Source: Defluviicoccus sp.
GTDB taxonomy: Bacteria > Pseudomonadota > Alphaproteobacteria > MPNO01
Direction: 5' to 3'
Assembly (NCBI GenBank): GCA_028820505.1
Contig: JAPPIT010000034.1
Span: 25,565-89,564, forward strand
DNA length: 64,000 bases
The position numbers and the translations under genes were made by a program. Below the pieces are notes generated by a model. The model saw nothing but the letters and a program-made list of their open reading frames with translations, was not told the origin of the DNA and ran no database searches. Shown here piece after piece: positions 1,694 through 24,486 of this stretch (position 1 is the stretch's first letter; each line of letters begins with the position of its first letter).

Positions 1694-1785
1694 TTATCCC
1701 CCCCCAGTTGCGACCGTCGAAGCGACGGTCTCGGTCGAAAGCGTAGCACCGCGCATTTCGCCTGCGCAATTCGGGCGCGGCATCG

Positions 1786-7298: not shown

Positions 7299-9620
7299 TC
7301 ACACGCCGTCGCCCTTTGTTTCGCGCCCGATAAGCGCGTGCAGCATTCGCTCGGACGTCATCGGCAGGTCTCGGAGCCGGATGCCGGTGGCGTCGGCGAC
7401 CGCGTTGGCGATTGCAGGGGCCACGCCTACGATGCCGGGTTCACCGATGCCCTTGGCGCCGAACGGCCCGGAGGGTTCGGGGTCCTCCACGACGATCGGG
7501 TCGATGGGATAAGGCACATCGAATGCTGTGGGCACCTTGTAGTCCATCAGCGTGGGGTTGATCAGCGTGGCCTCGTCCCAGACCATCTCCTCGGTGAGCG
7601 CGTAGCCGATCCCCTGGGCGAAGGCACCCTGGATCTGGCCCTCGACCGCCAGCGGGTTGATCGCCCGGCCAACGTCATGCGCCGACCACGCCTGCACGAC
7701 CGAGATTTGGCCCGTCACCTCGTCAACCTCGACTTCGACCGCTTGGGCGCCGAACACGTAGGTGCCGAGGTTGGAGAACGGGAACCCCCGGATCAGTGCC
7801 CGTTTCGGATCGAACCGTTCGCCATCGTACATGAGGGAGAAGTGGCCCATGATCGGGCCACCCACCGCCCAGTGCGCGCGCTTTGAAATCGCGATGAAAG
7901 GCAGCTCCTTTTCCGGCACGCCGGCGATGCCCACGCGCCCGCCGGGCCGCAACTCCAGATCTTCGCGCGCGCACTCCATCATGTCGGCCGCGTGCTCGAA
8001 AATCTGCTCCTTGACACGCTCGGCGGCACCGGCGACCGCTCGGCCGGTCATATACGTGACACGGCTGCCAGACGTGCTCCAGTTGTAGGGGGACGCGTCG
8101 GTGTCCGGATTGACGTAGTTCACCCGGTCCACCGGAACGTCGAGAGCGGCCGCGCAAATCTGCGCCAGCGCGGTATCGGCGCCCTGGCCGCTATCGACGG
8201 CGCCGGTGGCAACGGTGACCGTGCCATCTTCAAGCAGCCGGACGGCCGCGCTGGTCGACAGGAAGCCGCAGACATGCGCGAGGCACGCAACGCCGAGGCC
8301 ACGACGCTTCCCGGGCACGGATGCAACCGGCCGCGGCCGCCGGCGGGCGGCGTCGCGCACGCGCTCGATGCATTCCGTCATCCCGCAGGCTTCGATTGTC
8401 TGCCCGCCCAACCACTTGTCGCCGACATGCATCGCGTTCCGGATGCGAATCTCGAACGGATCGATGCCGAGCCGCGCAGCAATCTCGTCCACTTGCGACT
8501 CGGTGGCGAAGGTGATCTGCGGATTGCCGAAACCGCGAAAGCCGCCGGCGCGGCTCTTATTCGTGTAGACGGCCCGCCCGAACACCCGAACATTGGGGAT
8601 GTTGTACGGACCGCGCGCCTTCAGAAGCGCGGCGCCGAGGACAGCCGGGCTCTCGCTGCAGTAAGCGCCCCCTTCGAGCAGGACTTCGGCTTCGCGGGCG
8701 ACCAGCGCCCCGTCGTTCATCGCTCCCGTCTTGATCCGGATCCGCGCGGGATGGCGCCGGATCATCATCATCATGTCCTCCGAGCGGGACAGAACGATTT
8801 TCACCGGACGGCCGGTGCGCCGCGCGAGCTCGACCGCGACAGGCTGGAGGTGGGCGCCGCCCTTGCCGCCGAATGTGCCGCCGATACGCGGCGCGATCGC
8901 GCGGATCTGCGACATCGGGATATCGAGCAACGCCGAGACCTCGGCCTGTACCCGGAACACCGACTGGGTCGTCGACCACACCGTTACCTTCCCGGCGGAG
9001 TCGAATTCGGCGATCGCACCCGTCGGCTCGATCGCCTGGTGATACTGGGAGTGCGTGGTGAACTCGCTTTCGAGCACGACGTCGCATTCGTCCCACGCGC
9101 TATCGACGTCGCCTTCCACCATTTCCTGGTAGGAAACGACATTCCCGCCATATTCGATAAGGCTGCTCTTCTCGTATGCGTCCAGGTCGTCGTGCAGCTG
9201 CGGCGCGCCGTCGGCCAGCGCCTCCTCGATGGTGAGGACGGCCGGAAGCTCTTCGTACCCGATCTTCATCGCCCGAACGGCCGCCTGCGCGGTAGCGAGG
9301 TCCTCCGCCGCGGCGACCGCCACCGGTTCGCCGACATACCGCACCTTTCCGCGCGCAAGACAGGGCATGTCGCTTATCGCGCCGCCGCCGAGCCGGGGGA
9401 AGTCGTCGCCGGTCAGCACCGCGTGCACGCCAGGCATCGCCGCGGCTTCCGTGGCGTCGCAGGAAACGATCCGCCCATGCGGTATCGTGCTCAGGAGATA
9501 CGCGGCATGCAGCATTCCCGGCCGCACGATGTCGTCGAGGTACTGCGCTCGCCCGGCAATCTTCTCCCGCGCCTCCCGCCGCGGCAAACGTTCGCCGAGC
9601 CCGTGGAGCCGCTCCCCCAT
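7299..9620 (-). CDS. xanthine dehydrogenase family molybdopterin-binding large subunit (CoxL-like, not form-I CODH)
   Basis: 773 aa; GGFRGFGNPQ motif typical of molybdenum hydroxylases; lacks the VAYRCSFR active-site loop of form-I CO dehydrogenase; follows the FAD and 2Fe-2S subunit genes. Confidence 0.85.
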   Translation of the reverse strand: MGERLHGLGERLPRREAREKIAGRAQYLDDIVRPGMLHAAYLLSTIPHGRIVSCDATEAAAMPGVHAVLTGDDFPRLGGGAISDMPCLARGKVRYVGEPVAVAAAEDLATAQAAVRAMKIGYEELPAVLTIEEALADGAPQLHDDLDAYEKSSLIEYGGNVVSYQEMVEGDVDSAWDECDVVLESEFTTHSQYHQAIEPTGAIAEFDSAGKVTVWSTTQSVFRVQAEVSALLDIPMSQIRAIAPRIGGTFGGKGGAHLQPVAVELARRTGRPVKIVLSRSEDMMMMIRRHPARIRIKTGAMNDGALVAREAEVLLEGGAYCSESPAVLGAALLKARGPYNIPNVRVFGRAVYTNKSRAGGFRGFGNPQITFATESQVDEIAARLGIDPFEIRIRNAMHVGDKWLGGQTIEACGMTECIERVRDAARRRPRPVASVPGKRRGLGVACLAHVCGFLSTSAAVRLLEDGTVTVATGAVDSGQGADTALAQICAAALDVPVDRVNYVNPDTDASPYNWSTSGSRVTYMTGRAVAGAAERVKEQIFEHAADMMECAREDLELRPGGRVGIAGVPEKELPFIAISKRAHWAVGGPIMGHFSLMYDGERFDPKRALIRGFPFSNLGTYVFGAQAVEVEVDEVTGQISVVQAWSAHDVGRAINPLAVEGQIQGAFAQGIGYALTEEMVWDEATLINPTLMDYKVPTAFDVPYPIDPIVVEDPEPSGPFGAKGIGEPGIVGVAPAIANAVADATGIRLRDLPMTSERMLHALIGRETKGDGV

Positions 9621-9621
9621 C

Positions 9622-10089
9622 CTACGAATGCCCCATCATGCGTATCGCTTCGACGATCTTGGTGTATCCCGAGCAACGGCACAGGTTGCCGCCGATCGCC
9701 TCGCGAATCGCATCGACTTCCGGATGCGGGTTTTCGTCGAGCAACGCTCTTGCCGCCAGGACCATGCCCGGCATGCAATATCCGCACTGGATCGCACCGG
9801 ACGCCACGAATGCCTCCTGCACCGGGTCGAGCTCGTTGCCGTTCGCCAACCCTTCGACCGTCAGGATCGCCCGGTCGGTACAGTTGAGGGTGAGCGACAG
9901 GCACGACCGGAACGTCCGCCCGTCCAGGAGTACGGAGCAGGCACCGCAGAGGCCCTGATTGCAGCCCCGCTTGGCTCCGGTCAGGCCGAGCCCCTCTCGC
10001 AATGTGTCCAGCAGCGTGTCGGTCGGCCGTGCCGGCACCTCGACGTCGCGGCCGTTTATCGACAGGACGACAAGCCGCTTGCCGCTCAT
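9622..10089 (-). CDS. (2Fe-2S)-binding small subunit of molybdenum hydroxylase (CoxS-like)
   Basis: 155 aa; plant-type ferredoxin cysteines (CNQGLCGACSV) and a second cluster motif (CGYCMPG…CRCSGY). Confidence 0.9.
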   Translation of the reverse strand: MSGKRLVVLSINGRDVEVPARPTDTLLDTLREGLGLTGAKRGCNQGLCGACSVLLDGRTFRSCLSLTLNCTDRAILTVEGLANGNELDPVQEAFVASGAIQCGYCMPGMVLAARALLDENPHPEVDAIREAIGGNLCRCSGYTKIVEAIRMMGHS

Positions 10090-10943
10090 GCCGCTGCCTC
10101 GCGCCTGGCGATCGCGCGCCCGATCAGCCGGGCGACAAGCCGCGGGATCAGTAACCGGCGGTAATCGGCCGAGCCTCTCACGTCGCTCGGCGGGTCGGCC
10201 GCCTCGACGAGAAGCGCCGCTGCCGCCGTTATCGCTTCCTCGTCAGCGACCGTTCCCACAAGGCACGCATCGGCCTCTTCGACGTGGAGCGGCACCGGTG
10301 CGCAGCCACCGAGCGCCAGCCGGGCGGCGGATATCGCGCCGCTCTCGAAGGCGATCGTCGCCGAGGCGTTGACGGTGGCTATGTCCCCGTGCACCCGGCA
10401 CACCTTCTCGTGCACGCCTGCGGAATCGGGCGCCGGAGCCGGCAGGACGACGGCGGTCACCATCTCGCCCGGCGACAGCGTCGTCGTCAGGTAGAACTCG
10501 AAGAGGTTTTCGACCGGCGTCGACCGCCGGCCGGCGGGACCGACGATCTCCACTGTCGCTCCGGCCGCCACCAGCGCCGCGACCGCGTCGGAGGAGGGGT
10601 CGGCATGGGCGATCGCGCCGCCGATCGTGCCCATGTTGCGGATGACGATGTCGATCGTGCCCAGCGCCTCGTGCAGCACGCCGTTGGCGCGGACGAGGCG
10701 CGTATCGCCAAGGACCTCGCGATGGGTTGTCATCGCACCGATGCGGAAGCCGCCGAAGCCGTCTTCTCGAATTCCATGAAGCTCCTCGATCCGGCGCAGG
10801 CTGACCAGATGCGACGGCTCGAGCATGCCGAAATTCATCATGGCGACCAGAGAGGCGCCGCCCGCGAGGCAACGCGCGTCGTCGTCGGCTGCCAGCAAAC
10901 CGACGGCCTCGTCGATCGTTCTCGGTTCGTGAAAGTCGGGCAT
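10086..10943 (-). CDS. FAD-binding subunit of molybdenum hydroxylase (CoxM-like)
   Basis: FAD-binding PCMH-type sequence (LAGGASLVAMMNFGM…); start set at MPDFHEP (ATG 10943..10941) with GGAAAGGGG upstream; 4-nt overlap with the S-subunit gene. The track ORF extends 71 aa upstream without support. Confidence 0.8.
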   Translation of the reverse strand: MPDFHEPRTIDEAVGLLAADDDARCLAGGASLVAMMNFGMLEPSHLVSLRRIEELHGIREDGFGGFRIGAMTTHREVLGDTRLVRANGVLHEALGTIDIVIRNMGTIGGAIAHADPSSDAVAALVAAGATVEIVGPAGRRSTPVENLFEFYLTTTLSPGEMVTAVVLPAPAPDSAGVHEKVCRVHGDIATVNASATIAFESGAISAARLALGGCAPVPLHVEEADACLVGTVADEEAITAAAALLVEAADPPSDVRGSADYRRLLIPRLVARLIGRAIARREAAA

Positions 10944-11213
10944 GCCCCTTTCCGCCTCGCGTTGAGCCCGAACATCATCGTGCACGCGGCCCGGGAACCC
11001 GCCCTGCGGGCGCTGGGCCGCAAGATCCGATAGCGTAGCCTCGGCCGCTCGACTGCCCCAAGTAACCGGCCCCACCGACCGGTCCGGCTGGAATGTTACT
11101 CGATTGAGGCCGTCACGCGTGAGGGCATCTTCCACCATGTTTGTGGGCTGCTGCACTCGGATGGCTCCGCGGTCGCTCCCAAGCGAACCTCAACAAGGAA
11201 CTACCGCGCCTTC

Positions 11214-11237: not shown

Positions 11238-11366
11238 GAACCGCATCTCTGTCGAGAGTCCGTCGACCTTACCCGGCTTGCACCGTGCCTCGCATCGCAC
11301 TCATACTCGACCCGATACGGGGGCGATAACGGTATCGTCGGAATGAAGCAGGGGAGGTGCGGGATG

Positions 11367-12506
11367 AACATGCGTTTCACGCGACGAAGCGTCCTTAACG
11401 GTCTCGGTTCTTCGGCGGTTCTTGCGGCAGCGACGGGCGCCGCGTCGGTGTCTCCGGGGCGCATGGGCTTCGCTGCGGCGTCCTCCGACTGGCAGGCCGG
11501 GGCTCCCGACGAGTGGCACCGCATTCTGGCGGAGGCGCGCAAGGAGGGTCAGGTTACCGTCGCCGGATTCCCGGCGCTGGCGCGTGGCATGCCGCCGGCG
11601 TTCAAGCGCGATACCGGTATCGAGCTGAAGTTTTTCGGCGGCCGTCCGTCGGAGCTGTCCTCGCGCTTCGAGGCGGAGGCCATGGCCGACAAGATGACGC
11701 TGGACATCATGCTCGGCGGCGGACGCGAGCTCGTCAAGATGAAGCCCGGGGGCTATCTCAACCCCGTGCGGCCGCAGCTCGTTCTTCCCGGCGTCGGGCC
11801 GGAAAACTACCGCGACGGCAAGCTCAAGTTCATGGACGACGATGACCAATATCTGTTGCAGGGCGCCGAATGGGTGTTCGGCTGGCTGCTGGTCAACAAG
11901 GACATCGTCGACCCCGGCAAGATCAAGGTGTGGAAGGACATGCTCAAGCCGGAGTTCCGCGGCAAGATGATCTCGCACGACCCGCGCAGCCCGGGCCCCG
12001 GCCAAGGCGCGACCAACTGGCTCTACAACACCTTCGGCATCGAGTTCGTGAAGGAGTTCTATCTCGGGCAGCAGGCGAAATTCACCACCAGCAACCGCGG
12101 CGTGGTCGAGGAGGTGGTGCGCGGCACGAGGCCCATCGCCTTCGCGTCCATCCAGTTCTTCGTCGAGAAGTTCCGCAGGGAAGGCATCAAGAATCTTGCC
12201 GTGGTGCTGCCCGACGACGCGCCGGGCTACGTGACCGGCGGCTTCTCGGTCCTCAAGCAGGCCAAAAACGTGCCGCATCCCAACGCGGCCCAGGTCTTCA
12301 TCAACTGGTATGTCAGCCGGCCCGGCCAGGAGGTCTATGAGAAGACCATGCTCGCGACCAGCAGGCGCAAGGATGTGAAGACCGGTATCCCGAGCTACCT
12401 GGTTCCGCGGCCCGGCGTGAAGTACTTCGAGGCATACAGCGAGGAGCGTTACCTGCGCCGGAAGGTGGTGGTGAAGGCGATCACCGACGCGCTCGGCAAG
12501 CGCTGA
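11367..12506 (+). CDS. ABC transporter periplasmic substrate-binding protein (Fe3+/2-aminoethylphosphonate SBP family), Tat signal
   Basis: Twin-arginine signal MNMRFTRRSVLNGLG…AAA; SBP-like length; GGGGAGG SD before the ATG at 11367; first gene of a 5-gene same-strand cluster. Confidence 0.75.
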   Translation, partial: NMRFTRRSVLNGLGSSAVLAAATGAASVSPGRMGFAAASSDWQAGAPDEWHRILAEARKEGQVTVAGFPALARGMPPAFKRDTGIELKFFGGRPSELSSRFEAEAMADKMTLDIMLGGGRELVKMKPGGYLNPVRPQLVLPGVGPENYRDGKLKFMDDDDQYLLQGAEWVFGWLLVNKDIVDPGKIKVWKDMLKPEFRGKMISHDPRSPGPGQGATNWLYNTFGIEFVKEFYLGQQAKFTTSNRGVVEEVVRGTRPIAFASIQFFVEKFRREGIKNLAVVLPDDAPGYVTGGFSVLKQAKNVPHPNAAQVFINWYVSRPGQEVYEKTMLATSRRKDVKTGIPSYLVPRPGVKYFEAYSEERYLRRKVVVKAITDALGKR

Positions 12507-12528
12507 CCGCCCGCCCGAGGGACGGCGC

Positions 12529-13044
12529 GTGGCGGGGGATGCCGAAGGCGCGGCGGAAGCCCTGTTGCGGGGCGCCCGCCGCGCCGGCGTGGATGCCTGC
12601 GTCTACCTGCCGGACAGCGTGTTGTTCGGCACCATCCGGGCCTTCCGCGCCAGCGGGGAGGTGCTGATGGTGCCCTGCGCGCGCGAGGACGAAGGCATCG
12701 CCATCGCCGTCGGGCTCGATCTCGGGGGGCGTAATCCGGTGTGCCTGATGGAGGCGTCCGGCCTCGGATACAGCGGGCTGATCCTCGCCCGCGCCCAGGT
12801 CCAGCGGACGCCGGTCGTGATCCTTGCGAGCCATACCGCGGGCGGCGGCGAGCCGATGGACTACCACGGCGCCACGCGGCTCCTGTCCGAAGGCGTGTTC
12901 AGAGGGCTCGGCATACCCTTCGAGATCGCGACCGACTTCGACGGGCTGGAAGACCGGATATTCCGGGCGGTCCAGACCGCGCGCGGACAGCGCACCTGTT
13001 TCGGGCTCCTGGTCCCGCCCCATGTCATGCGGGGAGCGTCCTGA
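12529..13044 (+). CDS. thiamine-diphosphate-dependent decarboxylase alpha subunit (sulfopyruvate/phosphonopyruvate decarboxylase ComD-like)
   Basis: 171 aa TPP-enzyme N-terminal (Pyr) domain; GTG start 12529 with GAGGGA 6 nt upstream; stop overlaps the next start (cTGATGg). Confidence 0.7.
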   Translation: MAGDAEGAAEALLRGARRAGVDACVYLPDSVLFGTIRAFRASGEVLMVPCAREDEGIAIAVGLDLGGRNPVCLMEASGLGYSGLILARAQVQRTPVVILASHTAGGGEPMDYHGATRLLSEGVFRGLGIPFEIATDFDGLEDRIFRAVQTARGQRTCFGLLVPPHVMRGAS

Positions 13045-13631
13045 TGGACCGAATCGAGGCGATGGACATCGTCGCCGCGGCGCGCGGCGACGCAGCGGCG
13101 ATTGCCGGCCCGGGTGTCAACTCCGGGCTTCTCTACGCAAGGGCCGACGCGCCTGCGACCATCTACAACATGGACATGGGCTATGCGACGGCGATCGCGC
13201 TGGGCGCGGCGCTGGCGCGGCCGGACCGCAAGTTGCTCGCCATCGAGGGTGACGGGTCGTTCTTCGCGGGCGCGGCGGTGCTGTCGACGATCTGGCGGAT
13301 GCGACCCGAGAACCTCGTCGTGGTCGTGCTCGACAACGAGGTCTGGGGCACGGGCGAAGGAACCGAGCCGACCGCAACCGGCAGCGGCGCGGACATCGCC
13401 GGGCTGGCGCTCGCGAACGGTTGGGACGCCGCCCATGTCCACACCCCGGCGGGTTCGAACGAGCTCTCCGACCGGATGGGCACGGCGATGGTCGTCGCTG
13501 GCCCCCATCTCGTGGTTTGCAAGACCGACACCAGCCGCGACATGCCGTCCTCGCCCGATCGGCCGGTTCCCAGGCGCCATCAGCTCGACTGCGCGGTGAT
13601 GATGCGCGCGGAATTGAGCGGTGACGCTTAA
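13044..13631 (+). CDS. thiamine-diphosphate-dependent decarboxylase beta subunit (ComE-like, TPP-binding PP domain)
   Basis: 195 aa with TPP-binding motif GDGSFF…(N)…LDNEVWG (GDG-X24-NN-type); ATG at 13044 overlapping the alpha stop (TGATG). The track ORF 12741.. is an upstream read-through. Confidence 0.7.
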   Translation: MDRIEAMDIVAAARGDAAAIAGPGVNSGLLYARADAPATIYNMDMGYATAIALGAALARPDRKLLAIEGDGSFFAGAAVLSTIWRMRPENLVVVVLDNEVWGTGEGTEPTATGSGADIAGLALANGWDAAHVHTPAGSNELSDRMGTAMVVAGPHLVVCKTDTSRDMPSSPDRPVPRRHQLDCAVMMRAELSGDA

Positions 13632-15390
13632 GACCGGCCCGGTCGCCGCTTTGGCCGGAACGGCTTTATCCGAAAACGATCCTGGCGCGGGCTGGACCGG
13701 CCCGGTCGCCGAGACCCTGCTGCGCGGCTTCGGCTGGCTCTGCCTGGCGGCGGTGGCCGCGATCTGCATCCTGCCGGTGCTGCTGATCGTCCTCGGCGGG
13801 TTCAGCGAGGGCGAGCCGATCAACGCGTTCGCCCCGACCCTGGAGCCCTGGGCGCGGGCGCTGGAGAGCAAGCACACGATCGATTCCATCGTGACGTCGT
13901 TCGTGCTCAGCCTGCGCGTGCCGGCGGCGATGCTTATCGCCTTCTTCATCGCCTGGTACCTCGCCCGCAACGACGTCTTCGGCAAGCGCGCCATCATGTT
14001 CTCGCTCTGGGTCGGCTTTTTCCTGCCGATCCTGCCGGCGACCCTCGGCTGGATTCTGCTCCTCGACCCCAATTTCGGGCTGGTCAACGACTGGCTCAAG
14101 AACCTCCCCTTCGTGAGCGGGCCGGCGTTCGACATCTACTCGCTGGGCGGAATCACCTGGGTGCATATCACCCTGTCCACTATCCCGATCATGGTGATCC
14201 TGATCGAGCCGGCCCAGCGGCTGATCGACGCCTCGTTCGAGGAGGCCTCGACCATGTCGGGTGCGGGTACGCTGACGACCCTCCGGCGGGTGACGGTCCC
14301 GCTGATCGCGCCGACCCTGCTGACGGCGTTCATCGCCGGCACGATCCGGTCGCTCGAGGCCTTCGAGGTCGAGCAGCTGCTCGGCCTGCCGGCCGACATC
14401 CTGGTCTATTCCACGCGCATCTATCACCTGCTGAGGGTGATACCGCCGGACGCGCCGCAGTCGATGGCGCTGAGCTCCTTTTTTCTCGTTATCATGTTCG
14501 TGCTGGTCCTCGTTTACCGGGTATGGCTGCAGCGGGCGAGCATGGCCGCGACGCTGACCGGCAGGGGCGCGAAGCTTCAGCCGCGCCAGCGCACGCGGGG
14601 CTCCTACGCGGTCTCGGCCTTCCTGTTTCTGGCCGTCGCGGTGACCATCGGCCTTCCCTTCCTGATGGTTCTGCTGAGTTCGTTCAGCCGGCTTTTCGGC
14701 TTTTTCCACCTGCCCGATCCGTGGACCTTCGGGCACTGGGCGACGGTGCTGGAAGGCGACGAGTTCCTCCGTGCGGTCAACCAGTCGCTGATGACCGGCG
14801 CGGCGGTGGCCATCGCCGGTACGACGATCTATCTCGGCCTCGCCTGGTTCATCGCCCGCAACGCGTTTCCGGGAAAGGGCGCGCTCTCGCTTGCGATCTG
14901 GATGCCCTGGGCGCTGCCGGGCGTTCTGCTCGGGACTGCGTTCCTGGTGATCTTCCTCAACGCGCCGGGGCTGACGATCTTTTACGGGACGGCGGTCGCC
15001 CTGGTCACGGTGCTGATCGTCCAGGGCCTGCCCTTCGCGACCCATCTGTTCGAAGCCTCGATCGGCCAGGTCTCGCGCGAGCTCGAAGAGTCCTCGCTGA
15101 TGAGCGGGGCCGGAAGGCTGGAGACCGTCCTCCGTATCACCGCGCCGCTGGTCGCCCCCGTCGTCGCGACCGTGTTCGTGCTGTCCTTCATGTCGGCGAT
15201 CAAGGACATCAGCGCGACCGTGCTGGTGTCGACGCCCGACACCCTCACCCTGCCGCTGCTGATGTTCGTTTACGCAACGTCGGGACGGCTCGAAGTCGCC
15301 GCGGTGGTCGGCGTGATCACCGTGCTGATCGCCATGGCGATGGCGCTGCTCGTCACCTGGATCGGCGACCGCGCGGCGGTGATCCGATGA
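13621..15390 (+). CDS. ABC transporter permease, fused two-domain type (iron(III)/2-AEP PhnU2-like)
   Basis: 589 aa, about 12 TM segments in two repeated halves, each with an EAA-like loop; GTG start overlaps the decarboxylase-beta stop. Confidence 0.85.
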   Translation: MTLKTGPVAALAGTALSENDPGAGWTGPVAETLLRGFGWLCLAAVAAICILPVLLIVLGGFSEGEPINAFAPTLEPWARALESKHTIDSIVTSFVLSLRVPAAMLIAFFIAWYLARNDVFGKRAIMFSLWVGFFLPILPATLGWILLLDPNFGLVNDWLKNLPFVSGPAFDIYSLGGITWVHITLSTIPIMVILIEPAQRLIDASFEEASTMSGAGTLTTLRRVTVPLIAPTLLTAFIAGTIRSLEAFEVEQLLGLPADILVYSTRIYHLLRVIPPDAPQSMALSSFFLVIMFVLVLVYRVWLQRASMAATLTGRGAKLQPRQRTRGSYAVSAFLFLAVAVTIGLPFLMVLLSSFSRLFGFFHLPDPWTFGHWATVLEGDEFLRAVNQSLMTGAAVAIAGTTIYLGLAWFIARNAFPGKGALSLAIWMPWALPGVLLGTAFLVIFLNAPGLTIFYGTAVALVTVLIVQGLPFATHLFEASIGQVSRELEESSLMSGAGRLETVLRITAPLVAPVVATVFVLSFMSAIKDISATVLVSTPDTLTLPLLMFVYATSGRLEVAAVVGVITVLIAMAMALLVTWIGDRAAVIR

Positions 15391-16535
15391 GCGCGGGCAT
15401 GAAGCTGGTCGTCGAAGACCTGCGCAAGGACTATCACCGCCAGGCGCGGCGGCGCGGCGAGGACGACAAGCCCGCGCTCGACGGGGTGAGCCTCGCCATC
15501 GAGGATGGCGCGTTCTTCACCCTGCTCGGCCCGTCGGGTTGCGGCAAGACCACCCTGCTCCGCTGCATCGCCGGGCTCGAAATCCCCGACGGCGGCGAGA
15601 TTCGGCTGGGCGACCGGATACTGTTTTCGTCGGCCAGGGGCATCAACGTTTCGCCCAACCGGCGCAACCTCGGCATGGTGTTCCAGTCCTACGCGATCTG
15701 GCCGCACATGGATGTCTCCGAAAACGTCGCCTACCCGTTGACGGTTCGCGGTCGACGGGGAACCTACGGCCGGGCGGACATCGACCGCCGGGTCGCCGAG
15801 CTGCTGGACGTGATCCAGATCGCCCATCTCGCGAAACGCAAGGCGACGATGCTTTCCGGCGGACAACAACAGCGCCTCGCCGTGGCCCGCGCACTGGTGA
15901 TGGAGCCGCCGGTTCTGCTCCTGGACGAGCCGCTGTCGAACCTCGACACGCGGTTGCGGGAAGACCTGCGGGTGGAGCTCACCCGCATCCAGGAACGGCT
16001 CGGCGTGACGTCGATCTATGTCACCCACGACCAGGCCGAAGCGCTGGCGATGTCTTCCTCGCTCGCGGTCATGCGGGACGGCGCGATCGAACAGCGCGGC
16101 ACGCCGGAGGAGCTTTACGACTACCCGCGCACGCGGTTCGTCGCCTCCTTTCTCGGCGCCGCCAACCTGGTCGAGGCCCGGGTGCGCTCGGTCGACGACA
16201 GGGGGGCCGACCTGTACCGGTTCGGTGCGGAGACCGTCTGGGGCGCCCGCTTCGATGCGGTGGGCCGGGTGCCGTTCCGCCCGGGCGACCGCGTTTCGGC
16301 CGCCCTCCGGCCCGAGGGCGTGCAGGTGATCCCGCGCGCCGAAACCGGAACCGACGATGCGTGGTCGGGCGCGATCGAGTCGGTACAGTTCCTGGGGGAC
16401 GCGGTGGTCTATTTCGTCCGGCTGCGCGATGTCCTGCTTCGCGCGCGGTCGGATCGCGGCGGACGCCGCTTCGCCGCCGGCGATGCCGTCCGCATCGAGC
16501 TGCGCAGCGAAGCCTGTACCCTGGTCGCCGACTGA
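15387..16535 (+). CDS. ABC transporter ATP-binding protein with C-terminal TOBE domain
   Basis: Walker A GPSGCGKTT, signature LSGGQQQRLAVARAL, Walker B LLLDEP; ATG 15387 overlaps the permease stop (ATGA). Confidence 0.9.
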   Translation: MSAGMKLVVEDLRKDYHRQARRRGEDDKPALDGVSLAIEDGAFFTLLGPSGCGKTTLLRCIAGLEIPDGGEIRLGDRILFSSARGINVSPNRRNLGMVFQSYAIWPHMDVSENVAYPLTVRGRRGTYGRADIDRRVAELLDVIQIAHLAKRKATMLSGGQQQRLAVARALVMEPPVLLLDEPLSNLDTRLREDLRVELTRIQERLGVTSIYVTHDQAEALAMSSSLAVMRDGAIEQRGTPEELYDYPRTRFVASFLGAANLVEARVRSVDDRGADLYRFGAETVWGARFDAVGRVPFRPGDRVSAALRPEGVQVIPRAETGTDDAWSGAIESVQFLGDAVVYFVRLRDVLLRARSDRGGRRFAAGDAVRIELRSEACTLVAD

Positions 16536-16543
16536 GCGACGCC

Positions 16544-17371
16544 TCAGCGGTAGACCGCCTGCGCGCAGCCGGTATCGAAGCCCTCGATGGGCGCATAGAA
16601 CACGCGTTCCGCGCGGCGCCCGGCGAAGGCGCCCGCCAGCACGATCCAGGACCGGACCTCGCCCGTCGAGCTGCCGGCCGCCGTCATCCGGGCATCGCCC
16701 AGCCCGGCCAGCGCCGCGCCGTCGCCGGTGCACAGCCGGTCGAGGAACCACTCGTCGAAGCCGGCGTCGATGCGGCCCTGGTCCAGCGTGCCGACGGAAT
16801 GGGACAACCCGCCGGTCGCGACGATCCCCACCCGCTTGGATGCCGGCCAGTCCGCGATCGCCGCGGCGAGCCAGCGCCCCACGGCGAAGCACCGCCGGGC
16901 CGAGGGCATCGGGGCCGACGCGCAGTTGACGAATACCGGGATCATCGGCACCCGGCCGTCCGGGTCCAGCTTGTGCAGCGGGACCATCATCCCGTGATCG
17001 ACCTCCCAGAACTCCGACACCGCCCAGTCCACGCCCTCGTCGAGGCCGCGTTCGATCAGGTAGCGGGCGAGTTGGGGGTCGCTCGGCACCTCGCGCCAGG
17101 GATAGCCGACGTCCCGCGTCCTGCCCTCGACCGGGCCGGCGAAGCTGTCGAACAGACCCATGCAGAAGGCCGGCATGTTATCGATGAAGAACTTGTTGAC
17201 GTGCTCGGCGGAGACGATGAGACAGACGTCGGGAGCGGCCTCGCGGAGCGCCGCGGCAAGCCGGGCGTAGCCGGCGTCGAAGGCGGCGACCTCGGCCGGG
17301 TCGCCGGCATCGCGTGCATTCACGATATGGGCGAGATGCGAGGTGGCCAGCCCCAGGCAGAGCTCAGCCAT
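16544..17371 (-). CDS. class III extradiol ring-cleavage dioxygenase catalytic (LigB/CarBb-like) subunit
   Basis: 275 aa LigB-family sequence (…SAEHVNKFF…GGLSHS…); start overlaps the stop of the small-subunit gene. Confidence 0.8.
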   Translation of the reverse strand: MAELCLGLATSHLAHIVNARDAGDPAEVAAFDAGYARLAAALREAAPDVCLIVSAEHVNKFFIDNMPAFCMGLFDSFAGPVEGRTRDVGYPWREVPSDPQLARYLIERGLDEGVDWAVSEFWEVDHGMMVPLHKLDPDGRVPMIPVFVNCASAPMPSARRCFAVGRWLAAAIADWPASKRVGIVATGGLSHSVGTLDQGRIDAGFDEWFLDRLCTGDGAALAGLGDARMTAAGSSTGEVRSWIVLAGAFAGRRAERVFYAPIEGFDTGCAQAVYR

Positions 17372-17645
17372 GCCCGTCCGCCTCCACGGCGATGGCGGCG
17401 AACTTCCCGGGCGGGTGGCCGTGCAGCATGAAGTACTTGAAGACGAGGTTGGGCAGGGCCCCGCGGTCGAGCAGCGCCCGCCACCCCGGCGCCTCGAGGG
17501 CGGCGCGCGCCTCCTCGTCCAGCGGGTAGCGGTCGAGCCAGGCCGCCCGGTCCGCGCCGAATTCCCGCCGGCGGGCCGGGTCGCCGAGGTCGAACAGGGC
17601 GCGGTTGAGCCAGTAGCGCGCCGAAGCGGGCGGGGTCCCGGTCAC
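17364..17645 (-). CDS. extradiol dioxygenase small (LigA/CarBa-like) subunit
   Basis: About 94-aa product (VTGTPPASARYWLNRALFDLGDPARRREFGADRAAWLDRYPLDEEARAALEAPGWRALLDRGALPNLVFKYFMLHG…) resembling LigA-domain proteins; GTG at 17645..17643 overlaps the upstream Rieske stop (GTGA). The track shows only a longer 160-aa ORF whose N-terminus is GC-junk. Confidence 0.5.
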   Translation of the reverse strand: MTGTPPASARYWLNRALFDLGDPARRREFGADRAAWLDRYPLDEEARAALEAPGWRALLDRGALPNLVFKYFMLHGHPPGKFAAIAVEADGHG

Positions 17646-18826
17646 GGAGCGCGCCGTCCGGCATACCCGCGGCCCTGGATGCCGCGATTGTGCTTGCTGG
17701 CGAGCTTGCGCCATTCGGTGACCACCACGTCCGGGCGGTAGAGCCGCTCGCGATTCCAGCCGTCCTCCTCGCTGTAGAACCGCTCCATCGCCTCGCGGGC
17801 GAACACGTCCTCGTCGTTGAAGCGGTCGACCACCATCTCGCGCCAATATGTGTCGACCTCGTGAGCGAAGCGTTCCTGCTCGACCGGATCCGATACCCGC
17901 TTGCCCCAGGTGACCATGTAGTAGTGGGAATGCTCATCAATGGGGACGTACCATTCGAAATGGGTGATGCCGAGAGCCGGGAACGGATCGACCTTCAGAC
18001 CGCAGGGCATCCAGAGCGACGTGTCGGTGCCCTTGGAGCCCGCGCGGTCTTCATCGGGCATGGTCCGGGCGGCGATTCTCTCGCCCTCGATCTCGGTCTC
18101 CCAGACGGAGATCTTGCGGCCCGCCCCCTTGACGACGCCCTTGGGACCGCCGGGCGTATCCACCACCATGTCTTCGCGGGTAACGAAATAGCTCGCCAGC
18201 GGAACGGCGCGGCCGAGCGCGCTCAGCAGCCGCGAGTTGCGGTGGATGTAAATATGCGACGCATCGACCCCGTTCTCCGCCGCGAGGCGCCAGTTGCTCC
18301 TCACCACGCCCCGGTCGCCGTCGGGTGCGATATAGAGGTCGTCGTCGAGGAAGCCCGGCTGTACGTCCTCGACCAGCGGCGGCGGGTCGCCGTCGCCGAT
18401 GAAGACGAAGACGACGTTCTGCCGTTCCTCGACACGATAGGTCCTGAGCGCGACCTTGCCGATGAGCGGGCTCTCGGGGTCGGTGACGATCGCCACCAGC
18501 TTGCCGTCCCTGAGATCGTAGGTGAAGCCGTGATACCAGCAGGTCACCGTGTTGGCCGAGTAGCATTCGGGACGTGCCGAGAACGGAACCCCGCGATGGG
18601 CGCAACGGTCCTCGATCGCGTAGACACGACCGCCGATGCGCTTGAACAGCACCCGTTCGGCGAGGAGCTCCAGCCCCAGGCACTCCCCTTCCGCGATCTC
18701 CTTCGAGAAGCAGGCGGGGTACCAGTGATTGCGGAAGCCGAGTGCCGCCTTGAGATAGGACGCCCAGGGCTTGTTGTCGAAGTCCGCTTCCGGTCCGGCC
18801 GCAAGGTCCGTTTCGCTGTCCGCCAT
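17642..18826 (-). CDS. Rieske non-heme-iron oxygenase, single-component alpha type (CarAa/phthalate-dioxygenase-like)
   Basis: CAHRG…CWYHGF Rieske motif; RNHWYPAC N-terminal motif; start MADSETD (ATG 18826..18824) with GAAGGGGG SD; the track ORF adds 28 unsupported residues. Confidence 0.8.
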   Translation of the reverse strand: MADSETDLAAGPEADFDNKPWASYLKAALGFRNHWYPACFSKEIAEGECLGLELLAERVLFKRIGGRVYAIEDRCAHRGVPFSARPECYSANTVTCWYHGFTYDLRDGKLVAIVTDPESPLIGKVALRTYRVEERQNVVFVFIGDGDPPPLVEDVQPGFLDDDLYIAPDGDRGVVRSNWRLAAENGVDASHIYIHRNSRLLSALGRAVPLASYFVTREDMVVDTPGGPKGVVKGAGRKISVWETEIEGERIAARTMPDEDRAGSKGTDTSLWMPCGLKVDPFPALGITHFEWYVPIDEHSHYYMVTWGKRVSDPVEQERFAHEVDTYWREMVVDRFNDEDVFAREAMERFYSEEDGWNRERLYRPDVVVTEWRKLASKHNRGIQGRGYAGRRAP

Positions 18827-18837
18827 GCGTACCCCCT

Positions 18838-19674
18838 TCAATCCGACAGGAAGCCGACCACCAGGCGATTGAACGCTTCGGCGTGTTCGACCTGCGCCCA
18901 ATGACCGCATCGCGCGAAGATGTGCATCTGAGCCCGCTTCATCAGCCGGGTCATCTGAAGCCCCACATCCAGCGCCCCGAACCGGTCGTCCATGCCCCAG
19001 ACGATCAGCGTCGGGGACTCGATCTTGCCAAGGTCCGCGTACAGGTCTTCCTTCTTGTAACGGCCCTGGCGCTTGGCGAAGAGTTCGAGGTTGTCGGGCT
19101 CGATCGTCGTCTGGAACCGTTCCTCGACGACCTCGTCGGTGAGGAAGGAGGAGTCGTAGACCAGCGTGTCGAGAAGCTTGCGCAGCTTCTCCCGGGTCGG
19201 CCCCTCGCCCTTGTAGTAGTCGGCGATCATCTTGATGCCCTCGAGCGGGCTCGGCACGAAGATCGGATTGTTGATTGCTCCCGGGCCGAGCACCACCAGA
19301 CGGTCCACCCGCTCCGGCTTGTCGACGGCGAGCTTCAGCGCCACCTGCCCGCCCATCGAGTTCCCGATGTAATGCGCGCGTTCGATGCCGGTCTCGGTCA
19401 TGAACGCGTCCATCACCCGGGCGTTGAAGCCGAGCCGTCCCTCTTCGATCGGCACCTTCTCGCTCTTGCCGAATTGCGGCATGTCGACCAGCACGGCGCG
19501 GAAGCGTTCGGAGAGCGCGCCGACATTGCGCCGGAAGTTGCTCTCGCTGTTCGCGCCGGGGCCCGCGCCGTGGAGGCAGATGATCGGGTAGCCCCGGCCC
19601 ACCTCCTTGTAGTGCACCCGCACACCGGCCGCGGTCACGAATTGGCTGTCGGACAGGTCTCCGCGTGGTGCCAT
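18838..19674 (-). CDS. alpha/beta-hydrolase, meta-cleavage product (C-C bond) hydrolase family (BphD/CarC/HsaD-like)
   Basis: 278 aa; nucleophile elbow GNSMGG; HGAGPG oxyanion region; C-terminal catalytic His (HWAQ); 25 nt downstream of the M20 gene and 11 nt upstream of the Rieske gene. Confidence 0.85.
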   Translation of the reverse strand: MAPRGDLSDSQFVTAAGVRVHYKEVGRGYPIICLHGAGPGANSESNFRRNVGALSERFRAVLVDMPQFGKSEKVPIEEGRLGFNARVMDAFMTETGIERAHYIGNSMGGQVALKLAVDKPERVDRLVVLGPGAINNPIFVPSPLEGIKMIADYYKGEGPTREKLRKLLDTLVYDSSFLTDEVVEERFQTTIEPDNLELFAKRQGRYKKEDLYADLGKIESPTLIVWGMDDRFGALDVGLQMTRLMKRAQMHIFARCGHWAQVEHAEAFNRLVVGFLSD

Positions 19675-19699: not shown

Positions 19700-21022
19700 C
19701 TATGATACTACGCCGCACAGATCGAGCGCGGTCAGCGCGTAGACCTTCGACAGGGCAAGCAGATCGTCGACCGCCATCGGCCGCCGGTCTCCCGCGAGCC
19801 CACCGCCGAGAAACGCGGAGCGCGCACGCCCGCCATAGCAGACGGCGGGGATTCCCGCCTCGTTGAACGCGTTGGTGTCCCGCCAGGTGCTTATCGGACC
19901 GGACTCCGCGAATTCCATCGCCTCGTCGAAAACGCGCCGGTGCGCGCGGCCCAGCGCCTCGCCCAACGGGTCCGCGTCCTCGGCGAGATAGCCCCGCCGA
20001 TAGTCGTAGGGCGAGACCTCGCAATCCAGCCCCGTCGCGCCTAGTGTCCGCCGCACCCGGTCGAGAATCTCCGCCGGTCGGGCACCGGGCACGAGGCGCA
20101 CGTCGAAGAACACGTTGCAGCTATCGGAAACCTCGGTGAAGGGGAGGCCGCCCGCCGCCACCTCGCAAACCTGGGCGCGGGGCACGATCGTTCCCTTTCC
20201 GAAGTCGAGCGCGTCGGTTGTCTCGTAGTCCGTCGCCCAGGACTCGAGCGCCGAAATCACATGGGCCGCGCGCTCGAAGGGGTTGGGGTTGTCGCCGGGC
20301 GTCTCGCCGCGGATCAGAAGCGGCGTATAGCGCAGATGGCCGGGTACGGCGATCCGGAGCCGGAGATAGCCGGCCTGGCCCAGACCGAGCTTGAAGTCGG
20401 TGATTTCGCCGACAAGCGCGTAGTCGGCGACGATCCCGTGCTCGACCAGCCAGCGCGCGCCGTGACCCTCCCGCACCTGGCTCATGCGCGGCCCGATTCC
20501 GGACCAGCCCTCGATCTCCTCGCCGCGCTCCGGCGGAGCGCCGGTTTCCTGGGCGACTCCTGTAACGTAGAGGGTCTCGCGGAGCCGAAATCCCGCCCGG
20601 ACAATGGTGCGCATGGCGATCATCTGCGCGGCGAGCTGGGCTTTGTCGTTGGCGAGCCCGTTGCCGAACAGGAGCCCGTCCTGCTCGTGCGCGCCGCGCA
20701 GCCGCCGCTCCTCCTCCGCCCCGGCGGCGGGTGCCGCGCCCTGCGTGTCCATGTGGGCGTTGAGAATCAGCGAGCGGGCGCCGCCCGACCGATCGCCGGT
20801 GCCGCGCAGGATCCCGACGGCATTGGCGCTGGCCGCGTCGATCCGCTGCAGCCGGGTTTCGATCCCCGCCTCGTCGAGCCACGCTTCGACCGCCTGGGCG
20901 ACCGCGATTTCGTCTCCGGCGTAATCGCGCGCATTGCCGAGGCTGAGGCAAAGCTCGACCAGCTCCTGCCTCTGCCCGTCGACGATTTCGATGACCCGAT
21001 CCGCGAGCGCCGTCGCTTCCAC
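19700..21022 (-). CDS. M20-family metallo-amidohydrolase/peptidase (ArgE/DapE/CPG2-like)
   Basis: M20 signature around LNAHMDT and the dimerisation domain; start uncertain: GTG at 21022 (GAGGGA SD), alternative GTG at 21037; the track start at 21163 is unsupported. Confidence 0.7.
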   Translation of the reverse strand: MEATALADRVIEIVDGQRQELVELCLSLGNARDYAGDEIAVAQAVEAWLDEAGIETRLQRIDAASANAVGILRGTGDRSGGARSLILNAHMDTQGAAPAAGAEEERRLRGAHEQDGLLFGNGLANDKAQLAAQMIAMRTIVRAGFRLRETLYVTGVAQETGAPPERGEEIEGWSGIGPRMSQVREGHGARWLVEHGIVADYALVGEITDFKLGLGQAGYLRLRIAVPGHLRYTPLLIRGETPGDNPNPFERAAHVISALESWATDYETTDALDFGKGTIVPRAQVCEVAAGGLPFTEVSDSCNVFFDVRLVPGARPAEILDRVRRTLGATGLDCEVSPYDYRRGYLAEDADPLGEALGRAHRRVFDEAMEFAESGPISTWRDTNAFNEAGIPAVCYGGRARSAFLGGGLAGDRRPMAVDDLLALSKVYALTALDLCGVVS

Positions 21023-21186
21023 CTCTCGATCCCTCACGAGTCGATTGCGTCGTCGAATATCTTGAACCCGCCAGCCCAAGACCGCCAGAGGCGGTTCACA
21101 CAAGTCCGGACGCCGGAGTAGTTTTCCATCGAGGCGATGCACCCCGACCCAGGCGGAAAACACGTTGCCCGGCGAGGAGACGAGAC

Positions 21187-24474: not shown

Positions 24475-24486
24475 TTGACCCGGATG

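Follow-up and report, generated by a model that had tools for sequence, protein, structure and literature searches.

Closest described systems

The closest described counterpart of the locus analysed here is the lumA-Y operon of Nocardioides simplex ATCC 6946, for which the catabolism of lumichrome (riboflavin, vitamin B2) was reconstituted in 2025 (PMC12746152). In this pathway, amidohydrolases act upstream, LumK and LumL form a 1:1 two-subunit thiamine diphosphate (ThDP) decarboxylase acting on a quinoxaline-2-carboxylate, and the xanthine-oxidase-like LumJ hydroxylates the carbon that they free, after which a Rieske dioxygenase opens the ring and an extradiol dioxygenase follows; four transport genes are included in the operon (PMC12746152). 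The present locus lies in a 64,000-nucleotide stretch of DNA (the window) from an uncultured Defluviicoccus-like alphaproteobacterium and differs from the lum operon in its host as well as in the position of the decarboxylase genes, which stand between those of the substrate-binding protein (SBP) and the permease of an ABC importer.

The five-gene operon and its importer

The operon spans 11364-16535 on the + strand, and its five genes have a coding-type composition (GC3 0.88-0.91):

11364-12506, + strand: SBP of cluster D, Fbp/Thi/AEP-like fold, Tat-type signal (Pfam SBP_bac_8/6/1/11)
12529-13044, + strand: ThDP Pyr-domain subunit (TPP-N, alpha), GTG start, 171 aa, 17.9 kDa (PF02776)
13044-13631, + strand: ThDP PP-domain subunit (TPP-C, beta), 195 aa, 20.2 kDa (PF02775)
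13621-15390, + strand: fused two-domain ABC permease, 589 aa (two BPD_transp_1 stretches)
15387-16535, + strand: ABC ATPase with a C-terminal TOBE_2 domain (PF00005 and PF08402)

The original prediction, which described five same-strand genes with overlapping starts and stops and a split ThDP enzyme translationally coupled inside an ABC importer operon, is borne out: all five genes are present, and three junctions were read from the sequence, namely TGATG at 13042-13046 between alpha and beta, an 11-nt overlap between beta and the permease (GTG at 13621), and ATGA at 15387-15390 between permease and ATPase. The SBP start that it gave, 11367, is one codon off, because an in-frame ATG with a AGGGGAGG Shine-Dalgarno sequence is found at 11364; the N-terminus of the protein (MNMRFTRRSVLNGL...) carries a twin-arginine (RR) motif. 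The fused 12-TM permease that was predicted agrees with the hydropathy profile, which has about 11-12 peaks, and with the two BPD_transp_1 stretches.

The importer shares its fold family, the cluster D SBP, the fused 12-TM permease and the TOBE ATPase with the Fbp/ThiBPQ/PhnS2T2U2/P5PA group, whose ligands are anionic or heterocyclic (thiamine, PLP, AEP, sugar phosphates, Fe3+), but every specific model stays far under its threshold here. The proposed identity as PhnS2/U2/T2 or Fbp was not supported, with profile scores of 38.8 (cut-off 393), 117 (593; a full-length, sub-threshold match of the permease to PhnU2) and 311 (458) for the three Phn components; the ATPase is PotA/PhnT2-like, also under the cut-offs. 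In a weak alignment, the Tyr residues of the Thermus thermophilus Fe-binding protein fall on Phe in the SBP. To our knowledge, no other member of this group has enzyme genes between its SBP and permease genes.

The decarboxylase subunits

The alpha/beta pair (hereafter TPPab) has the rare two-subunit architecture that had been predicted, with a Pyr subunit (PF02776) and a separate PP subunit (PF02775) that are comparable in size to ComD and ComE. Of the GDG…NN motif claimed for beta, the GDG part is there and the NN part actually reads DN, so that the Mg motif is GDGS...LDNE. More than 270 homologues of beta were found. Beta shows a conserved G[D/E]GS...N motif, and among 41 homologues the cofactor-activating Glu of the alpha "CAREDEG" motif is kept in at least 95%. 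Conservation of both this Glu and the Mg-binding motif suggests that the enzyme is probably active.

Membership in the sulfopyruvate/phosphonopyruvate decarboxylases was not upheld. ComD and ComE (TIGR03845 and TIGR03846) and Ppd (TIGR03297) are the top named matches, but all scores against these curated profiles lie far under the cut-offs: 50.6 bits for alpha against ComD (cut-off 148), and 90.6 and 71 bits for beta against ComE (221.5) and Ppd (312.5), respectively. The top NCBIfam match of beta, NF004813, is a "hypothetical protein" (92 bits, cut-off 240). Among split ThDP enzymes of solved structure, RhiEF, a phosphonopyruvate decarboxylase, is the nearest (PDB 9iz3; E 3e-9 for beta, 2e-7 for alpha); the similarity of TPPab to Ppd and RhiEF is limited to the generic ThDP fold.

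Flanking genes

Both flanks carry genes for aromatic and N-heterocycle catabolism:

7299-9620, - strand: Mo-cofactor (large) subunit of a xanthine-dehydrogenase-family hydroxylase (Pfam Ald_Xan_dh_C, MoCoBD_1 and MoCoBD_2)
9622-10089, - strand: [2Fe-2S] small subunit of the Mo hydroxylase (Pfam Fer2 and Fer2_2; NCBIfam PucE/XdhC-like, below cut-offs)
10086-11156, - strand: FAD subunit of the Mo hydroxylase, longest ORF (Pfam FAD_binding_5 and CO_deh_flav_C from residue 75)
16544-17371, - strand: LigB-type (class III) extradiol dioxygenase, catalytic subunit (PF02900)
17364-17642, - strand: LigA-type small subunit of the extradiol dioxygenase, start approximate (PF07746 in ORF 17364-17846)
17642-18910, - strand: homotrimeric-type Rieske oxygenase, homologue of carbazole 1,9a-dioxygenase CarAa (PF00355 and PF11723)
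18838-19674, - strand: alpha/beta-fold meta-cleavage-product C-C hydrolase, BphD/HsaD/CarC-like (NCBIfam HsaD 269 bits, BphD 249 bits, both sub-cut-off)
19700-21163, - strand: M20-family metallohydrolase M20a, ArgE/DapE/YgeY-like (PF01546, PF07687; NCBIfam)
21187-22518, + strand: M20-family hydrolase M20b (PF01546)

The solved structures nearest to the Mo subunit are the alpha subunit of 4-hydroxybenzoyl-CoA reductase (377 bits) and quinoline 2-oxidoreductase, Qor (298 bits). Homologues of the FAD subunit are 287-298 aa long, and translation of this subunit probably begins about 70 codons into the longest ORF. LigB matches the class III extradiol and MhpB-like subfamilies in NCBIfam and LigB, gallate dioxygenase and MhpB in the PDB, and homologues of LigA were found in 12 distinct loci of relatives, the one in locus L003 being called with 92 aa. 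The Rieske oxygenase matches CarAa with an E-value of 1e-108 (366 bits) and OxoO with 258 bits, while the nearest solved relative of M20b is the 5-nitroanthranilate aminohydrolase NaaA (PDB 5k8p, E 5e-23). The CarAa homologue, the two-subunit LigAB and the adjacent BphD-class hydrolase, all on one strand, recall carAa/carBaBb/carC; here, in contrast, they are joined with an ABC importer, a ThDP decarboxylase, M20 hydrolases and a Mo hydroxylase, and neither an anthranilate dioxygenase nor car ferredoxin/reductase genes were observed in the cluster.

At 7-12 kb downstream there are, in addition, a permease of the TauE/SafE family and an ABC system of the NMT1 (sulfonate/taurine) type.

Conservation across related loci

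Among the related alphaproteobacterial loci (clade A), the SBP-alpha-beta-permease order holds in 15 of 16, at beta identities of 64-94%; a lack of conserved gene order, which the original prediction named as grounds for rejecting it, is thus not what is observed. The SBP gene is upstream of alpha in all 16, and overlaps of 4-8 nt between operon genes are common. A simple neighbour-joining tree, built without support values, groups the ABC-embedded loci in a single monophyletic clade. Because they are monophyletic and have retained both order and overlaps, the arrangement appears to be selected rather than due to chance.

The tightest linkage in these neighbourhoods is that of TPPab with the Mo-hydroxylase genes, a homologue of the Mo subunit lying within 10 kb in 15/16 clade-A and 14/20 other loci. 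LigB homologues are found in 14/16 clade-A loci, and C-C hydrolase homologues in 12/16 clade-A and 10/20 other loci. M20b adjoins TPPab clusters in several phyla at 43-75% identity. The whole set of TPPab, Mo hydroxylase, ring-cleavage and M20 genes surrounds homologues in Alphaproteobacteria, Limnocylindrales, Eremiobacterota, Methylomirabilota, Chloroflexota and Actinomycetota, the importer being absent in the last four. In a paralogous clade (Streptomyces, Nocardioides, Beijerinckia), an aminotransferase adjoins TPPab. AMP-binding ligases are present in loci L001 and L025.

These neighbourhoods bear on the original proposal that phosphonoalanine, 2-AEP, cysteate or sulfolactate is imported and its 2-oxoacid decarboxylated by TPPab as a phosphonopyruvate or sulfopyruvate decarboxylase. 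The ComD/ComE/Ppd and PhnS2/U2/T2 matches, the kinship with RhiEF and the downstream TauE/SafE and NMT1 genes would fit it. The matches, however, are 2- to 10-fold short of the curated cut-offs, neither TauE nor the NMT1 SBP is conserved in the neighbourhood of homologues, and the conserved partners are the Mo hydroxylase, CarAa-like, LigAB, C-C hydrolase and M20 enzymes. The statement that no transaminase, Xsc or PhnX is nearby was correct, although it overlooked the catabolic genes on both sides; no PEP mutase, PhnW/X, Xsc, ComABC, Suy or cysteate-related genes were seen in the window flanks or the annotated related loci, and the operon has no coenzyme M or sulfolactate context. Such a route is thus highly improbable.

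A proposed route for N-heterocyclic carboxylates

What each enzyme does, what the substrate is and that TPPab is equivalent to LumK/LumL are inferred here, whereas the genes present, their order, coupling and conservation, the families to which they belong and the conserved ThDP and Mg motifs were observed. The importer, with its Tat-exported SBP, fused permease and TOBE ATPase, would take up an anionic compound with its carboxylate on the carbon beside a ring N (an "alpha-imino acid" motif), for example quinoxaline-2- or quinoline-2-carboxylate. The two M20 hydrolases may first strip a ureido or amino group beside the carboxylate, whereupon the co-translated ThDP enzyme would take off the carboxyl group, as LumK/LumL do, and the adjacent three-subunit Mo hydroxylase would hydroxylate the vacated carbon, as LumJ does. 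The CarAa-like oxygenase would then dioxygenate and open the N-ring or produce a catechol, LigAB would cleave the catechol, and the BphD-like hydrolase would free the fragments.

TPPab falls short of the ComDE and Ppd cut-offs, yet it matches the two-subunit 1:1 architecture of LumK/LumL (about 20 and 23 kDa), the two being compared by architecture and gene context. Both loci combine such an enzyme with a xanthine-oxidase-family hydroxylase, a Rieske dioxygenase assigned to N-ring opening, an extradiol dioxygenase, amidohydrolases and ABC-type transport, and the order of the chemistry would be the same: decarboxylation next to N, hydroxylation of the same carbon, dioxygenation and cleavage. 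The module had been called undescribed, but this enzyme logic is that of the reconstituted lumichrome pathway (PMC12746152). The flanking set, its recurrence in several phyla and the monophyly, order and overlaps of clade A also argue for the N-heterocycle. On the other hand, LumJ is a single 140 kDa protein, the Mo subunit here is nearest to 4-hydroxybenzoyl-CoA reductase and belongs to a family that includes aldehyde oxidoreductases as well, LumCD is an alpha/beta-type Rieske enzyme and not a CarAa-type one, LigAB and the BphD-like hydrolase stand in place of LumE/LumW/LumY/LumX, and the conserved module has no clear counterparts of LumU (P450), LumH and LumI. Moreover, clade A consists only of MAGs, without physiology.

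ThDP decarboxylases normally use 2-oxoacids. An aryl or heteroaryl 2-oxoacid (arylglyoxylate, arylpyruvate) or an amino-acid precursor might accordingly be imported and converted by TPPab to an aldehyde, which a Mo aldehyde oxidoreductase would turn into a one-carbon-shorter aromatic acid for the Rieske, LigAB and hydrolase steps. This course, although rather unlikely, agrees with the aminotransferase of the paralogous clade, the AMP-binding ligases, the top NCBIfam match of the FAD subunit (glyceraldehyde dehydrogenase beta, 211 bits) and the aldehyde oxidoreductases that the Mo subunit also matches. Against it, the Mo subunit scores lower with PaoC (about 200 bits) than with the ring hydroxylases and reductases named above, the NaaA-like M20 and CarAa-type angular dioxygenase better fit an N-heterocycle, and LumKL is the sole characterised two-subunit ThDP enzyme found with xanthine-oxidase-like, Rieske and extradiol partners (PMC12746152).

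Within the N-heterocycle reading, the substrate could tentatively be narrowed to quinoline-2-carboxylate (quinaldate/kynurenate type) instead of a flavin-derived quinoxaline. The pathway logic, the sole basis of this doubtful variant, comes from the quinoline pathway of Pseudomonas putida 86: TPPab would be followed by a Qor-like hydroxylase and then by an OxoO-like 8-monooxygenase. Lactam opening and removal of the amino group would be the work of the M20 enzymes, and the last steps that of the MhpB-like LigAB together with an MhpC-like hydrolase. The Qor and OxoO matches, the match of LigB to the MhpB subfamily (131 bits) and the BphD/MhpC class of the hydrolase are in line with it, and a literature search turned up no genes for kynurenate or quinaldate catabolism. 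The Rieske enzyme is nevertheless nearer to CarAa than to OxoO, and ThDP decarboxylation of quinaldate has no known precedent.

In general terms, it is reasonable to suppose that the compound undergoes decarboxylation as it enters the cell. The five-gene operon is probably the part of a catabolic island that takes up a benzo-fused N-heterocyclic carboxylic acid and carries out the first step of its breakdown, and the gene cluster most likely serves the breakdown of ring-shaped nitrogen compounds, not phosphonate or sulfonate metabolism.

Organization of the importer operon

The operon comprises five genes on the forward strand, which were established from the ORFs listed and by reading the sequence itself, with domains assigned by Pfam and NCBIfam.

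Genes of the importer operon (window positions, strand, product)
11364-12506, +, solute-binding protein (SBP); ATG in frame behind a AGGGGAGG Shine-Dalgarno sequence, N-terminus MNMRFTRRSVLNGL with a twin-arginine motif
12529-13044, +, thiamine-diphosphate (ThDP) Pyr-domain protein (alpha), 171 aa; GTG start, PF02776
13044-13631, +, ThDP PP-domain protein (beta), 195 aa; PF02775
13621-15390, +, permease, 589 aa; two BPD_transp_1 stretches, about 11-12 hydropathy peaks
15387-16535, +, ABC ATPase; TOBE_2 domain

The five-gene operon of the original prediction is borne out by gene listing, sequence reading and domain content, and the junctions are as it described them: TGATG between alpha and beta, a permease GTG start that overlaps the last 11 nt of beta, and ATGA between permease and ATPase. 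The SBP gene was correctly recognized, except for its start, which had been placed at 11367, one codon after the in-frame ATG. Likewise, the split enzyme of Pyr and PP subunits (17.9 and 20.2 kDa) is present, but its motif, given as GDG...NN, reads GDGS...LDNE.

Classification of the decarboxylase

With its two subunits of 171 and 195 aa joined at TGATG, the pair shares the Pyr/PP architecture of the sulfopyruvate decarboxylase ComDE. Family membership, judged by the curated NCBIfam cut-offs, is a different matter. Alpha scores 50.6 bits against the ComD equivalog cut-off of 147.95 (TIGR03845), beta 90.6 bits against 221.5 for ComE (TIGR03846), and for the phosphonopyruvate decarboxylase Ppd (TIGR03297, cut-off 312.5) beta reaches 71 bits and alpha 25 bits. 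Since all scores fall below the cut-offs, the enzyme is ComDE-like in architecture but lies outside both families in which it had been sought. The top match of beta is the uncharacterised model NF004813 (92 bits, cut-off 240), and the nearest solved split enzyme, the phosphonopyruvate decarboxylase RhiEF, is matched only at E 3e-9 by beta and E 2e-7 by alpha. The labels sulfopyruvate or phosphonopyruvate decarboxylase, which JGI annotations attach to such genes, are to be avoided.

The alpha/beta pair is probably an active ThDP enzyme, because the family retains both the cofactor-activating Glu of the 'CAREDEG' motif and the Mg motif G[D/E]GS...N. In the beta alignment, GEG replaces the canonical GDG of the ThDP Mg motif in many homologues (window 13245-13253), and the importer-embedded clade shows almost no variation in its C-terminal tail, RPxPxRHxLDCAVxMRAxL. 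Another solved split ThDP enzyme (PDB 9u8q/9u8r/9u8s), with subunits of 170 and 194 aa and TDG in place of GDG, has only distant similarity to the window pair (E 2e-8). It was considered as a structure of LumKL, the lumichrome-operon decarboxylase of Nocardioides simplex, and ruled out, being a Streptomyces/Kitasatospora protein with the TDG motif.

The transporter

The transporter belongs to the cluster-D group with fused permease, where its nearest relatives are Fbp, ThiBPQ, PhnS2T2U2, AfuA and the PLP-binding P5PA; ligands in this group are anionic or heterocyclic. A 2-aminoethylphosphonate importer, as formerly suggested, does not emerge from the curated models: the SBP scores 38.8 bits against the PhnS2 cut-off of 392.75 (TIGR03261), the permease 117 against 593.25 for PhnU2 (TIGR03262) and the ATPase 310.6 against 457.7 for PhnT2 (TIGR03265). 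Iron binding by the SBP appears somewhat unlikely, judging from a weak phmmer alignment (38 bits) with the Fe-binding protein of T. thermophilus (7f6p), in which the SBP has Phe opposite the Tyr residues of 'YGFFGSY'; the ligand residues of 7f6p are inferred solely from the mutant series in the PDB. Thiamine uptake of the ThiBPQ kind, suggested by a TPP-binding protein beside a ThiP-like permease, was rejected, as ThiP is matched at only 23 bits and it is catabolic enzymes that are conserved alongside.

Genomic neighborhood

The original prediction covered the operon alone, and the flanks add useful information.

Genes flanking the operon (position, strand, product)
11156-7299, upstream and divergent, -, Mo hydroxylase of the xanthine-dehydrogenase family (FAD, [2Fe-2S] and Mo-cofactor subunits)
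Directly downstream, -, LigB and LigA, class III extradiol dioxygenase
Downstream, -, homotrimeric Rieske oxygenase; carbazole 1,9a-dioxygenase CarAa E 1e-108, 2-oxoquinoline 8-monooxygenase OxoO 258 bits
Downstream, -, BphD/HsaD-like C-C hydrolase; HsaD 269 bits, BphD 249 bits
19700-21163, downstream, -, ArgE/DapE/YgeY-like M20 hydrolase
21187-22518, after the minus-strand genes, +, second M20 protein; nearest solved relative 5-nitroanthranilate aminohydrolase (NaaA), E 5e-23

Given this Mo hydroxylase, LigAB, Rieske, C-C hydrolase and M20 set, the operon lies at the centre of an aromatic/N-heterocycle catabolic island. In gene content, the window resembles the car pathway, where a CarAa-type homotrimeric Rieske oxygenase, a two-subunit LigAB-type dioxygenase and a BphD-class hydrolase are adjacent too.

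The same neighborhood speaks against phosphonate or sulfonate chemistry, which had been proposed from the decarboxylase and importer and which we now consider highly improbable. No phosphonate or sulfonate enzyme, PEP mutase included, occurs among the annotated neighbours in the window, and ComABC, SuyAB, Xsc and a transaminase are found neither among the Pfam/NCBIfam-annotated window neighbours nor in the gene tables read for related loci. A TauE-family permease and an NMT1-type ABC system 7-12 kb downstream were weighed as support for a sulfonate, yet they are not conserved near homologues. Encoded in this minus-strand region (23383-30062) are the permease of the TauE/SafE family, an SBP of NMT1 type, a BPD permease and an Amidohydro_1 protein of 509 aa. 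In L006, one of the related loci, an 84% homologue of the amidohydrolase is found some 5 kb upstream of the Mo hydroxylase, so this protein may be part of the pathway, with cyclic amidase as its candidate role.

Upstream, positions 701-4567 (-) hold the TRAP transporter genes DctP (701-1693) and DctM (1786-3105) and a second Rieske oxygenase, an alpha-type large subunit (3272-4567), for which related loci give scattered weak matches only (27-48% identity, one locus each). Adjoining the Mo hydroxylase, 4788-6995 (+) encodes an N,N-dimethylformamidase beta-like protein (PF20254, 735 aa, 79.6 kDa). A BCCT transporter and heterotetrameric sarcosine-oxidase-type genes (SoxG, a SoxA-like protein of 1061 aa, DAO) at 44355-51550 form a separate one-carbon/betaine catabolic cluster with no relation to the importer operon.

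Conservation across genomes

More than 270 beta homologues were found, with 272 matches in one search and 207 in another, and most belong to uncultured bacteria from several phyla. The closest named relatives are Defluviicoccus MAGs, which makes a Defluviicoccus-like member of the Rhodospirillales the probable source of the window; a tblastn search of beta against PLSDB returned no plasmid relative. In all, 38 loci were collected, 35 of them distinct. In a neighbour-joining tree of 37 beta subunits, computed without support values, the importer-embedded loci form one alphaproteobacterial clade (Defluviicoccus, Stellaceae and unclassified members), here clade A.

Within clade A, the order SBP-alpha-beta-permease recurs in 15 of the 16 loci (window counted), often with overlaps of 4-8 nt, so that the expected conservation of gene order is upheld. 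A Mo-hydroxylase large subunit lies within 10 kb in 15/16, accompanied by LigB (14/16), a CarAa-like oxygenase (13/16), the hydrolase (12/16) and the NaaA-like M20 protein (12/16). The 20 loci outside clade A come from Eremiobacterota, Methylomirabilota, Chloroflexota, Limnocylindrales, Actinomycetota and Gammaproteobacteria. None of them has a window-type SBP or permease, while the Mo hydroxylase is present in 14, usually directly adjacent to the alpha/beta pair, and the hydrolase, LigB and M20 in 10, 8 and 8, respectively; in the Methylomirabilota version, an NMT1-type ABC system takes the importer's place. Because the partners persist where SBP and permease do not, the conserved functional unit is the decarboxylase with the Mo hydroxylase, ring-cleavage enzymes and M20, and its insertion into the importer operon is clade-specific and stably kept.

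Individual loci show variations. One (L018, 10001-10264) is apparently decayed, with beta truncated and permease and ATPase missing, though SBP, alpha, LigB and the NaaA-like M20 remain. In the closest relatives (L005-L011), genes for the ABC importer, LigAB, the Rieske oxygenase, the hydrolase and the M20 proteins mostly share 82-97% identity with their window counterparts. Identity to window 7299-11156 drops to about 72% (Mo) and 63% (FeS) for the Mo-hydroxylase genes, which run on the same strand as the operon and give no FAD-subunit match in this comparison; in the window, the three genes are inverted. Such a pattern would fit either rearrangement at this site or exchange for a paralogue. 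An uncultured alphaproteobacterium (contig_17075; L004/L015) carries two alpha/beta pairs, one inside the ABC operon and the other, a 39-43% identical paralogue, directly upstream of Mo-hydroxylase FAD/FeS/Mo genes. The same genome has a second paralogous SBP/ATPase/permease set without decarboxylase, as well as DHO_dh and isochorismatase genes.

A paralogous clade with a 199-aa beta (L033, L036, L037 and L038; Nocardioides ginsengisoli, Streptomyces, Beijerinckia), 32-40% identical to the window beta, is found beside an unusual hydroxylase with Mo and FAD parts fused (1114-1197 aa) and the FeS subunit separate, together with an FAA hydrolase, an asparaginase-like protein, other ABC types and, except at the Beijerinckia locus, an aminotransferase. 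It probably acts on a different substrate, for which an ordinary 2-oxoacid is plausible given the adjacent aminotransferase. For the window operon, the main rival explanation, to which we assign a low probability, is that an ordinary aryl-2-oxoacid decarboxylase acts first and a Mo aldehyde oxidoreductase second.

Comparison with the lumichrome operon

The lumichrome operon of Nocardioides simplex has been reconstituted in vitro (Sinha et al., ACS Cent Sci 2025; PMC12746152). There, the hydrolases LumH, LumI and LumM open and shorten the pyrimidine ring, leaving 3-hydroxyquinoxaline-2-carboxylate, an 'alpha-imino acid' that is decarboxylated by LumK/LumL, a 1:1 two-subunit ThDP enzyme of about 20 and 23 kDa including tags, in what the authors call a new motif in ThDP chemistry (PMC12746152). 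To be soluble, LumK required LumL (PMC12746152). Xanthine-oxidase-like LumJ then places a hydroxyl group on the vacated carbon, its product is dihydroxylated and ring-opened by a Rieske dioxygenase, and the catechol so formed is cleaved by an extradiol dioxygenase; the operon also includes four transport genes (PMC12746152). As other two-subunit ThDP decarboxylases, the authors (PMC12746152) and an accompanying commentary name only ComDE and RhiEF.

Compared by published description, the window pair is, like LumKL, a two-subunit ThDP enzyme with intact cofactor motifs, and the window holds the same cast of xanthine-oxidase-family hydroxylase, Rieske and extradiol dioxygenases, amidohydrolases and transport genes, an association conserved across phyla. 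It differs in its alphaproteobacterial host, importer-embedded decarboxylase, CarAa-type oxygenase and three-subunit Mo enzyme. The conserved window module contains neither a P450 nor an evident counterpart of LumH or LumI. If flavin-derived, the pathway probably starts from an already soluble intermediate. LumH, the opener of the pyrimidine ring, is an 80-kDa protein whose family is not given (PMC12746152); the dimethylformamidase-like protein was rejected as its conserved counterpart, as no related locus has a homologue. A search seeded with the Nocardioides ginsengisoli beta gave no N. simplex protein among the matches listed.

The window operon is best filed, by analogy, with the LumKL-type heterocycle-decarboxylase pathway, as a variant. 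Of the original prediction, architecture, coupling, conservation and the idea of decarboxylation on entry stand, whereas the proposed chemistry and the 'undescribed catabolic module' fall, a LumKL-type pathway having already been reconstituted (PMC12746152).

Proposed function

Riboflavin is classically degraded via a quinoxalinedione to oxamide. With this route as a model, the enzyme set of the window points to a pathway for a benzo-fused diazine or azine carboxylate. In the reading we favor, and consider reasonably probable, the importer would take up an anionic benzo-fused N-heterocyclic alpha-carboxylate, the alpha/beta pair would remove the carboxyl group on entry, and the products of the flanking genes would hydroxylate, open and cleave the ring. 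The CarAa homologue would fit the ring-opening step, as CarAa chemistry is angular dioxygenation at the N-bearing carbon, and the NaaA-like M20 would fit a step like that of LumM, in which hydrolysis takes off the amino group ortho to a carboxylate. Candidate substrates, each of which would use every conserved gene, are a flavin-derived quinoxaline carboxylate and a quinoline-2-carboxylate of the quinaldate or kynurenate type, the latter via Qor-, OxoO- and MhpBC-like steps.

A broader proposal is more speculative, and we regard it as rather doubtful: the decarboxylase and Mo hydroxylase could constitute a general, widespread two-step swap of carboxyl for hydroxyl on the carbon next to the ring N, which in the alphaproteobacterial clade may be coupled physically or kinetically to the ABC importer, trapping an environmental azaarene carboxylate (flavin-derived quinoxaline carboxylates or quinaldate/kynurenate as candidates) by decarboxylation on entry. 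Literature searches returned nothing relevant on kynurenate/quinaldate degradation genes, on sulfopyruvate decarboxylase with xanthine dehydrogenase, or on thiamine and molybdenum with Rieske and meta-cleavage enzymes.

Implications

Two-subunit ThDP decarboxylases have been thought rare, with ComDE, RhiEF and, since 2025, LumKL as representatives, and a very recently discovered enzyme class would here be widened to many uncultured lineages. Since Mo hydroxylases and ring-cleavage enzymes recur beside members of the several-hundred-member family, ThDP-dependent decarboxylation is suggested to be a common environmental route for N-heterocyclic acids, such as those from vitamin B2 breakdown, quinolines derived from tryptophan, and quinoxalines used as drugs and pesticides. 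Should the substrate be kynurenate, quinaldate or an intermediate of the Stadtman-type quinoxalinedione route, these would be the genes for steps that have been known biochemically since the 1960s and are still genetically orphan. The importer-embedded version offers a defined and tractable pair of SBP and enzyme for identifying the natural substrate, and points to wastewater and soil communities whose members cross-feed on soluble products of flavin breakdown.
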